Shown: piece by piece, positions 14,793-16,178 of the stretch
How the letters are laid out: each line of letters begins with the position of its first letter
Numbering within the stretch: position 1 is the stretch's first letter
Notes under the pieces: generated by a model
The model's input: the letters and a program-made list of their open reading frames with translations, nothing else
Told to the model about the DNA's origin: nothing
Databases searched by the model: none
Source of the DNA: Pseudomonadota bacterium
Lineage (GTDB): Bacteria; Bdellovibrionota_C; UBA2361; OMII01
Assembly (NCBI GenBank): GCA_027486155.1
Contig: JAIXPR010000364.1
Location: forward strand, 1-27,164
Length of the DNA: 27,164 nucleotides
Direction: 5' to 3'
Translations under genes and position numbers: made by a program

Positions 14793-16178
14793 CTACTTCA
14801 TATAGATTCGCTTCGTGGAGAGTTTTGCCGCCTTAGCCCTCGTGGCGAGGACTCGCCTCAACTCAGAGGTACATACCGCCTTCTTGACGTTAACGGACCG
14901 TGCTACCACAGCGCCAAACATCGGATCTGTCGCGTTCACATGAGGCCTAATAGCCGAGAGATACCGTTTCAGCGACGTCTGAGCGGGTCGGCTCAGCTTG
15001 ATTCGCGATGGTGCTCGCCCCTCTTTAAGCGACACCTTCAACGTACCTTTCGCTGGATTGAAATCGCCCATCCTCACGTTCACCAGCGCGCCGACCGGCA
15101 TCACTCGGCTCGCGTAGAGATGCGCAAGCGCTCTATTTCGCAACGCGACTGTGCCCCTACCGATTCCCTTCGACACAAATGCCTTCGCGAAACGGGGCGC
15201 GATTCGCACCCTCAACCCAGCTCCTTGCTCCTTGGTAGAGCAGAATTCGGCGGTATTTACGCGTGGCGTTGGTCTCGGTGTCGGTGTTCCGGTTGGGACC
15301 GGTGTCGGCGGCGTGCCGCTGTCTGTGCCACCGTCGCTATCATCTGGATCTGGAGTCGGTGTAGGCACAACAACTCCGGTCACATCAGGACTTGTCGCCG
15401 GACAATTAGTTACGGAGGTAGCCACCACCGCGGTCGATAGTCCATCGGGAATCGACCCCGAGGTTGAGATGGTGAAGTTATCAACTCGCACGCGGCCATT
15501 GACCTCCGCGAGGAAAACGCCGAAAGCTCGAACGGTTCCTGTCACGGGAAGGGAGGTGTTATACGCGGTTGGCGTCGCGGCACCAAGGCCGTTGACGTAG
15601 GGAACGGTCCCGTAGAGCAACTCCGAAGGATCCAACTTTACGGGCTCCCACTTAAACGGCCTACTTTGACGGGTCGCGGTTCCAGAGATGTACCAGGTGT
15701 TATCAATAAGGAAGATGAGCTGGGTCTGATTCATGACGCCGGCGGCGTCGATACCACTGAGACGTTGCTCGTACTCAACGCTTGAGGGGTTTTTCGAGAT
15801 CAAACCTACATCGAAAGGGAATTCAGCTGTCAGGAAGGAAACTCCATACGCGGGTTTGAACCAGAAGGAGTAGCCTTCGGCCTTACCCTGTGGAACGCTA
15901 TTTACCGATCCTCCAACGATGGTGCTACCATACGAGAAGACCTTAAGATTACTAAACTTCTCTTTTGGGAGTCCCGTTACCAAGCCCAACCAACCGGTCT
16001 CATCGGCCGCCGGCTTGCCGAGACTTGCGGTGCAATACTGATACGTTTCTTTATAGATTATCCTTGATTCAGCCTGAGCTTCGTCACAGGGAGCGGCAAG
16101 GATGCCAGACATTCCCAAGGTGAACGCGAACGCGCACGCCCTGGAAAAAGATTGCGACATGGATGAACATTGATTCAC
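14793..16178 (-). CDS. Secreted protein: beta-sandwich-like domain, Thr-Pro linker and degenerate tyrosine-recombinase-like C-terminal domain
   Basis: GAGGAG before GTG 16178 (ATG 16160 is an alternative). Signal-like FSRACAFAFTLGMSGILAAPCDEAQA; PTPTP linker; LRNRALAHLYAS...LKRYLSAIRP aligns by eye to the XerD catalytic domain. Confidence 0.85.
   Translation of the reverse strand: MNQCSSMSQSFSRACAFAFTLGMSGILAAPCDEAQAESRIIYKETYQYCTASLGKPAADETGWLGLVTGLPKEKFSNLKVFSYGSTIVGGSVNSVPQGKAEGYSFWFKPAYGVSFLTAEFPFDVGLISKNPSSVEYEQRLSGIDAAGVMNQTQLIFLIDNTWYISGTATRQSRPFKWEPVKLDPSELLYGTVPYVNGLGAATPTAYNTSLPVTGTVRAFGVFLAEVNGRVRVDNFTISTSGSIPDGLSTAVVATSVTNCPATSPDVTGVVVPTPTPDPDDSDGGTDSGTPPTPVPTGTPTPRPTPRVNTAEFCSTKEQGAGLRVRIAPRFAKAFVSKGIGRGTVALRNRALAHLYASRVMPVGALVNVRMGDFNPAKGTLKVSLKEGRAPSRIKLSRPAQTSLKRYLSAIRPHVNATDPMFGAVVARSVNVKKAVCTSELRRVLATRAKAAKLSTKRIYMK

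Follow-up and report, generated by a model that had tools for sequence, protein, structure and literature searches.

How does part of a tyrosine recombinase come to stand at the C-terminus of a protein that appears to leave the cytoplasm? This question is raised by an open reading frame (ORF) on contig JAIXPR010000364.1 (assembly GCA_027486155.1), from a bacterium deposited as Pseudomonadota and placed by GTDB in Bdellovibrionota_C (UBA2361; OMII01). The whole stretch analyzed, 27,164 nucleotides, is referred to here as the window. The ORF, our target, occupies 14793-16229 on the minus strand, encodes 478 aa when counted from its first ATG, and ends with a TAG stop codon at 14793-14795. An initial annotation had read in it a signal peptide, a beta-sandwich domain, and a C-terminal, truncated, catalytically dead XerC/D-like domain; the ORF exists, and its C-terminal sequence matches the one quoted there. 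Tyrosine recombinases are among the best-studied DNA enzymes, and the domesticated inactive derivatives known to us (the MrpR/SroF phage repressors, kinetochore Ndc10, and Crypton-derived proteins) all still act on DNA inside cells. We found that the C-terminal domain (C-domain) of the target has its origin in the catalytic domain of a tyrosine recombinase of the XerC/D type and is maintained under purifying selection, and we weighed what it might do on an exported protein.

The C-domain comprises residues 326-478 (153 residues; 14796..15254, minus strand). It is longer than first described: its extent had been given as 14793-15170, but the domain begins at approximately residue 326, that is, window position 15254. 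Searched as a single sequence, the target scored below the gathering cut-off of Pfam PF00589 (E 0.11, 12.7 bits, cut-off 27.1 bits), and the sole phmmer match in the PDB was a pilin at E 0.11, which we judged to be spurious. A family profile was therefore needed, and we built one from an alignment of 55 homologous C-terminal domains (alignment A2). This profile returned four PDB matches, exclusively tyrosine recombinases, with E-values of 8.9e-7 for XerA (5hxy), 1.3e-4 for an archaeal Xer (4a8e), and 5e-4 to 8e-4 for Escherichia coli XerD (5dcf/1a0p). When the 55 members were searched individually, 41 matched PF00589 at E<1, the best at 1e-6.

Structure prediction gave the same answer. The AlphaFold2 model of residues 326-478 computed from A2 was confident (predicted local distance difference test score, pLDDT, 94.6; predicted template modeling score, pTM, 0.90). 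Foldseek against the PDB, which the initial annotation had proposed as a check of the fold, matched this model exclusively to Xer or Cre at E<=1e-3, and a structure search of the ESM Atlas returned XerC-family clusters with a TM-score of 0.74. In the VIA structure search, which is independent of Foldseek and covered 48,161 chains, the model scored Z 11.9 with Cre, 11.7 with XerA, 11.5 and 11.2 with XerD, and 10.9 with XerH. All 26 chains at Z>=5 had the recombinase/topoisomerase-IB fold, and the next Z values lay below 4. Taken together, the profile matches, the model, and the VIA scores indicate that the recombinase homology is real and far above chance, as the initial annotation had supposed from an alignment by eye.

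What remains is the first two-thirds or so of a tyrosine-recombinase catalytic domain, consisting of the helical core and the three-stranded sheet. The C-domain resembles the XerC/XerD/XerA-type recombinases of PF00589 in sequence (E 9e-7 to XerA by profile) and in fold, over ~125-135 residues with a root-mean-square deviation of 2.8 Å. The shared motifs are the RD in the first long helix, the V-N after the Arg-I helix, the D of the xDY/F turn, the Y in the YL helix, P-L-F, and the R-A in the last retained helix. The nearest relatives of the C-domain are recombinases of ~300-360 aa, some of them from the same lineage.

To locate the losses, we used an alignment (A3) of the C-domain with four complete recombinases from the profile search (P0122, P0131, P0132, and P0136), each of which carries SAM-like and Phage_integrase domains and HxxR...H...Y. 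Homology begins in the recombinase inter-domain linker, at a G-x-G-K/R motif that the family retains ahead of the C-domain. Family chains stop 1-2 residues ahead of the His of HxxR, so the reading that the ORF ends at this box and lacks the tyrosine was correct. The HxxR motif, the second His/Trp, the tyrosine nucleophile, and the C-terminal helices (the last ~65 residues) are thus missing. At the other end, no Phage_int_SAM match was found in the target, and a beta jelly-roll stands in place of the N-terminal SAM-like core-binding domain. The catalytic Arg-I column, FARVG in recombinases, is occupied by Pro378 (VMPVG; codon CCG, 15096..15098, minus strand) in both the HMMER and the MAFFT alignments, as had been noted. 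An Arg is still present at this column in a distant subfamily (e.g., P0115 and P0116), which indicates that Arg-I was lost within the family, after truncation. The claim that the catalytic Lys is kept held only in part. Lys402 (codon 15024..15026, minus strand) lies at or beside the beta-hairpin catalytic-Lys position and pairs with XerD K172 in the HMMER alignment, but it is one column away in the MAFFT alignment, and the position is K/R in only 68% of family members, so that a retained Lys is not a family feature. With its catalytic residues lost, the C-domain is unable to cut or join DNA. In sum, the target has the recombinase fold and lacks the catalytic residues, the core-binding domain, and a Pfam score above threshold.

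No continuation of the recombinase was found beyond the stop codon. A tblastn search with the C-terminal tails of the four real recombinases detected no HxxR...Y remnant, frameshifted or otherwise, at E<=1 in the window and 45 related loci. In the window, a convergent ORF for a 350-aa membrane protein stops at 14777, 15 nt past the target stop codon, and therefore leaves no space for a continuation. A six-frame PF00589 search of the host genome gave one other locus only, a normal tyrosine recombinase.

The gene is widely conserved in this form. We found more than 100 full-length homologues at 35-96% identity, every one annotated as "hypothetical", and they are conserved as a single gene, not as two separate genes. 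None of the refuting outcomes named in the initial annotation was observed. The 55 close homologues that we aligned all have the whole architecture, as do 20 additional representatives of clusters at 50% identity that an exhaustive profile search retrieved; at least 24 such clusters share it. A survey of the phylum's GTDB species genomes showed one copy of the gene in 32 of the 34 genomes of the genus, and the full architecture also in four other genera of the same order. The carriers are metagenome-assembled genomes, mostly from freshwater lakes, with the public labels Bdellovibrionota, "Deltaproteobacteria", or "Pseudomonadota". The initial annotation had proposed a test for purifying selection. 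In three independent pairs with unsaturated dS, the Nei-Gojobori ratio of nonsynonymous to synonymous substitution rates (dN/dS) of the C-domain was 0.145, 0.142, and 0.124, and that of the N-terminal jelly-roll was 0.05-0.09. The C-domain is thus maintained under purifying selection. Two freshwater metatranscriptome runs yielded only two short contigs (333 and 245 nt) inside the gene, at 94-98% identity; they are compatible with expression of relatives, which is a weak indication because carry-over of DNA is possible. One metagenomic contig carries a tandem pair of family members (L037:4209-5396 and 5699-6475, plus strand) beside a sulfatase-like gene; elsewhere, the family is mostly single copy.

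The N-terminus of the target has the features of a Sec-type signal peptide. The real start codon is probably GTG at 16178 (V18) or ATG at 16160 (M24), because the homologues are 453-465 aa long and P0002, which is 96% identical, begins at the residue matching V18. From there, a basic n-region and a hydrophobic core lead to an A-Q-A cleavage motif ahead of E54 (signal peptide up to residue 53; 16071..16178, minus strand). The N-termini of the 55 homologues drift freely in sequence, and the complete ones all keep a basic n-region and a hydrophobic core (a hydrophobic 10-mer). Ala stands at -3 in 44 of the 55 and at -1 in 41, and the cleavage site is followed by a conserved mature start, E/Q-x-x-x-I-Y-R/K-E-T-F. 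By feature count, then, the cleavable n-h-c signal peptide with an AxA site that the initial annotation had seen in one protein is present across the homologues.

The cysteines follow a strict pattern. In 72 of 75 members, there are exactly four Cys after the cleavage site, two in the N part (C66, codon 16032-16034; C276, codon 15402-15404) and two in the C part (Cys330, codon 15240..15242; Cys453, codon 14871-14873; all minus strand). The other three members have lost both N-part Cys jointly, and an odd number never occurs. All 75 members retain C330 and C453. In A3, only one of the four real recombinases has a Cys at the C453 column and none has one at the C330 column. The AlphaFold2 model places C330, the putative partner of C453, in an N-terminal segment; this segment makes a beta-bridge next to the hairpin that leads to C453. 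This 2+2 pattern with joint loss suggests a pair of structural disulfides, of which the former recombinase domain would have newly gained one, and thus folding outside the cytoplasm.

The whole-protein AlphaFold2 model contains two confident domains, with pLDDT above 90 over most of both; its pTM of 0.59 indicates that they are independent of each other. Between them lies a disordered, flexible, acidic linker (residues 292-325; 15255..15356, minus strand) that is rich in Pro and Thr and also contains Asp, with pLDDT below 50 at residues 294-296 and 312-324 and variable length across the family. The N-terminal domain (N-domain; residues 54-291; 15357..16070, minus strand; pLDDT mostly above 85) is a jelly-roll with a carbohydrate-binding module (CBM) or galactose-binding-like fold, so the beta-sandwich and TP-rich linker of the initial annotation were borne out. 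In VIA, the N-domain model matched the CBM22 of Xyn10B at Z 12.3 and CBM15, CBM11, and CBM4 at Z 9-11, over 135-165 residues; the Foldseek matches to jelly-roll CBMs had E-values of 1e-4 to 1e-7. The model also resembles the CIA30 and MAM domains of the galactose-binding-like superfold. Many aromatic residues are invariant in the N-domain (W80, W123, W179, W194, Y59, and Y100). Unlike the jelly-roll CBMs, it matched no Pfam or NCBIfam family and is ~35% larger than a typical CBM, and any sugar binding by it is putative.

The N-domain also opens two bacterial TSP3-repeat proteins without a recombinase-like domain, of 847 aa (L047:7923-10466, plus strand) and 765 aa (L048:6516-8813, minus strand), from two genomes in another order of the class. 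TSP3 repeats are typical of extracellular proteins, and the N-domain therefore behaves as an extracellular module. An FG-GAP repeat protein adjoins the L048 protein. At a related locus (L049:7644-10700, minus strand, here G063:C46), an 888-aa exported protein with a glucose/sorbosone dehydrogenase domain and two PKD domains is followed, after a single in-frame TAA, by a truncated recombinase-like domain of the target type with both conserved Cys. This arrangement may represent a further architecture, or else a pseudogene or an assembly error; a collection of 5.8 billion proteins contained no intact long protein with a C-domain of this type. As a portable module on other exported proteins, the C-domain would rest on this one broken example, and we did not retain the idea; other C-domain matches without the N-domain were contig-end fragments or real recombinases. 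Near the same locus lies the gene for an exported 657-aa protein (L049:10948-12921, plus strand) that Pfam did not match. Its Thr/Pro-rich linker is very long, and its C-terminus is a short tail that is highly basic and contains Cys, which suggests that exported proteins of this lineage may more generally bear cationic C-terminal tails.

The evidence up to this point decides against two accounts of the locus. A recombinase fragment decaying in frame behind a secreted protein, by chance fusion or as a pseudogene, would explain why the single sequence stays under the Pfam threshold, and the in-frame TAA ahead of the C-domain in G063:C46 would be in keeping with it. Against it stand an architecture shared by more than 100 homologues and by at least 24 clusters at 50% identity, dN/dS of 0.12-0.15, and an invariant Cys pair. 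Moreover, no HxxR...Y remnant follows in the window or the 45 loci, and in the window the convergent gene ends 15 nt past the stop. Conservation and selection refute this account, to which we attach practically no credence. The other account, a cytoplasmic DNA-binding regulator like MrpR or SroF whose N-terminus has been misread as a signal peptide, can draw on the precedent of dead recombinase folds serving as repressors. It is very improbable given the n-h-c pattern with AxA kept despite sequence drift, the 2+2 Cys pattern with coordinated loss, the CBM-like jelly-roll and Pro/Thr linker, and an N-domain common to TSP3-repeat proteins. Both accounts are essentially excluded.

The C-domain is strongly basic. 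Over ~150 residues, the net charge ranges from +13 to +27 (median +20, n = 75 members) and reaches +26 in the window protein; that of the N-domain is about -2, and the linker has a median of -5. The equivalent region of real recombinases is already basic (+6 to +18), indicating that DNA-type electrostatics were inherited and then strengthened, mainly through loss of acidic residues. K/R is conserved at columns 348, 353, 366, 375, 386, 402, 411, 458, 464, 466, and 469, as a residue type and not as identities, which would fit electrostatic polymer binding better than a specific interface. The most conserved C-domain residues are fold-core positions common to recombinases (R364-D365, V383-N384, D389, Y423, P436, F438, and R464-A465).

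Gene neighborhoods of distant members include genes for polysaccharide export and synthesis. In L035, the target homologue is directly followed by Wza, Wzc, and an epimerase, with UDP-glucose dehydrogenase upstream; in L042, Wza and Wzc directly precede it; in L045, UDP-glucose dehydrogenase follows it; and in L044, a Wzx-type flippase and a GT4 glycosyltransferase lie nearby. A GT4 gene adjoins the target in L043 and lies 2 kb away in the window. The uronic-acid polysaccharides for which UDP-glucose dehydrogenase supplies the precursor are anionic.

We favor the view that the target is an exported, disulfide-stabilized protein of two modules, in which the strongly cationic C-domain would, without catalysis, bind a polyanionic polymer outside the cytoplasm. 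Candidate ligands are an acidic exopolysaccharide (EPS) or lipopolysaccharide (LPS), or extracellular DNA (eDNA), DNA being the ancestral ligand. The jelly-roll would bind glycan, and the protein may tether or cross-link envelope or matrix polymers, as a lectin-like module held on an anionic extracellular polymer. We put the probability of such a polyanion-binding anchor at about 45%. An acidic polysaccharide appears at least as likely a ligand as DNA, because half of the DNA clamp is gone and the distant neighborhoods point to exopolysaccharide export. Several points weigh against the anchor. Half of the recombinase DNA-contact surface is missing, so affinity for DNA may be weak. The conserved neighbors within the genus are a P1B-type ATPase and two secreted proteins of unknown function, with no polysaccharide genes; such genes are common anyway and occur in about 6 of 12 independent neighborhoods, the others being uninformative. 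The signal peptide was judged from sequence features only, and the Cys pattern favors disulfides but falls short of proof.

In a narrower form of the polyanion anchor, the C-domain would be dedicated to binding DNA in the periplasm or outside the cell, so as to capture eDNA in a matrix, to scavenge or take up DNA, or, in a predatory Bdellovibrionota lineage, to bind prey DNA. This is the line taken by the initial annotation, which had proposed a basic DNA-binding module serving, for example, eDNA capture, biofilm tethering, or an effector. DNA is the ancestral ligand, a net charge of +13 to +27 has been retained, Arg-I is still present in the distant subfamily, and the other catalytically dead recombinase-fold proteins among our structural matches all bind DNA: SPbeta MrpR (8a0a, Z 8.0), DNA-bound phi3T SroF (9rd5, Z 7.8), and the DNA-binding domain of yeast Ndc10 (3sqi, Z 6.4). 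Nevertheless, the core-binding domain and the C-terminal third, which complete the recombinase DNA clamp, are gone, Arg-I is Pro in the clade of the window, and the beta-hairpin Lys is unconserved. No nuclease, competence, or pilus gene recurs among the neighbors, the recurring ones being polysaccharide export and synthesis genes, and cationic proteins bind many polyanions, so we consider exclusive dedication to DNA unlikely. We judge it equally unlikely that the C-domain has a purely structural role or docks onto other proteins, for instance an envelope complex such as the Wza/Wzc exporter or an outer-membrane protein, with its charge incidental. Two distant members do adjoin Wza-Wzc, and the most conserved residues belong to the recombinase-shared fold core, with no obvious new ligand site. 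Yet a high positive charge kept over 75 divergent members while single basic positions drift is the pattern of electrostatic polymer binding, and no partner gene is conserved across genera.

The polyanion anchor that we favor also has a more ambitious version. In it, the tyrosine-recombinase fold would have its first descendant outside the cytoplasm: a truncated Xer-like domain, stapled by a disulfide, would bind eDNA or another anionic matrix polymer and, through its lectin-like partner domain, cross-link DNA to exopolysaccharide in the envelope or matrix. This full scenario is doubtful. If true, a core enzyme of mobile-element and chromosome biology would have been domesticated into an extracellular matrix protein.

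Against known systems, the target combines familiar and new features. It is unlike Xer recombinases not only in its missing SAM-like domain, HxxR, H/W, Tyr, and C-terminal helices and in the Pro at Arg-I, but also in its signal peptide, two putative disulfides, higher positive charge, and fusion behind a jelly-roll. MrpR, SroF, and Ndc10 likewise reuse the fold without catalysis, and tyrosine-recombinase-derived Tn7 target selectors are reported as another such case (PMC10293859). Those proteins are full-length or nearly so and act on DNA inside the cell; the target, in contrast, is truncated, apparently exported, and probably disulfide-stapled. Staphylococcal surface proteins are reported to bind eDNA and heparin interchangeably (PMC5480030). 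They would offer a functional analogy, a cationic module on an exported protein held on an anionic polymer, but have no sequence or fold kinship with the target.

Full-text literature searches returned no description of a secreted or periplasmic recombinase-fold protein. Exapted inactive recombinase folds were known already, and what is unusual in the target is its apparent export, truncation to two-thirds, a new putative disulfide, and the CBM-like fusion. Here a fold has been cut to two-thirds, deprived of catalysis, provided with a new Cys pair, and apparently exported, and purifying selection has kept it throughout a whole bacterial lineage; nature thus offers a clean case of the lengths to which a nucleic-acid enzyme domain can be repurposed. 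Two domain families so far without annotation, the jelly-roll and the truncated domain, also emerge where databases now say "hypothetical protein", and, for a poorly known group of uncultured freshwater Bdellovibrionota, the analysis yields a candidate protein for the binding of extracellular polyanions (eDNA or acidic EPS).

The surroundings of the target in the window are those of an ordinary chromosome and include genes for a P1B-type heavy-metal ATPase, a TlyA-type methyltransferase, a GT4 glycosyltransferase, a reprolysin-like peptidase, MltA, and one IS4-type transposase. Within the genus, the gene order is target, P1B ATPase, a secreted 469-aa protein (orf469), and a 131-aa protein (orf131). 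This order holds throughout the genus and is absent in the other genera, and we therefore treated it as inherited gene order and not as functional evidence. The ATPase (11702-13594, minus strand; 630 aa; TIGR01525/TIGR01512) lies immediately downstream of the target, with 66-95% conservation over the genus; Pfam detected only E1-E2_ATPase and Hydrolase in it and no N-terminal metal-binding domain. The convergent 350-aa polytopic membrane protein (13725-14777, plus strand) has no family match, was found only in the closest relatives (L002, L003, L005, L017, and L025), and is absent between target and ATPase in the rest of the genus.

The orf469 product (10161-11570, minus strand) belongs to no family that we could match; it combines a signal peptide with repeats of the DxDGDG (FG-GAP-like) type, an acidic linker rich in TP, and a C-terminal region with many Cys. 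Its position downstream of the target and the ATPase is preserved in nearly every genome of the genus; no significant similarity was found between it and the FG-GAP neighbor of the N-domain protein in L048. Between orf469 and orf131, the window contains the IS4-type transposase gene (8775-9968, minus strand; DDE_Tnp_1 and DUF4372). Only ~320 bp are present at that site in the 93%-related locus L002, indicating that the transposase is a recent insertion in the window genome.

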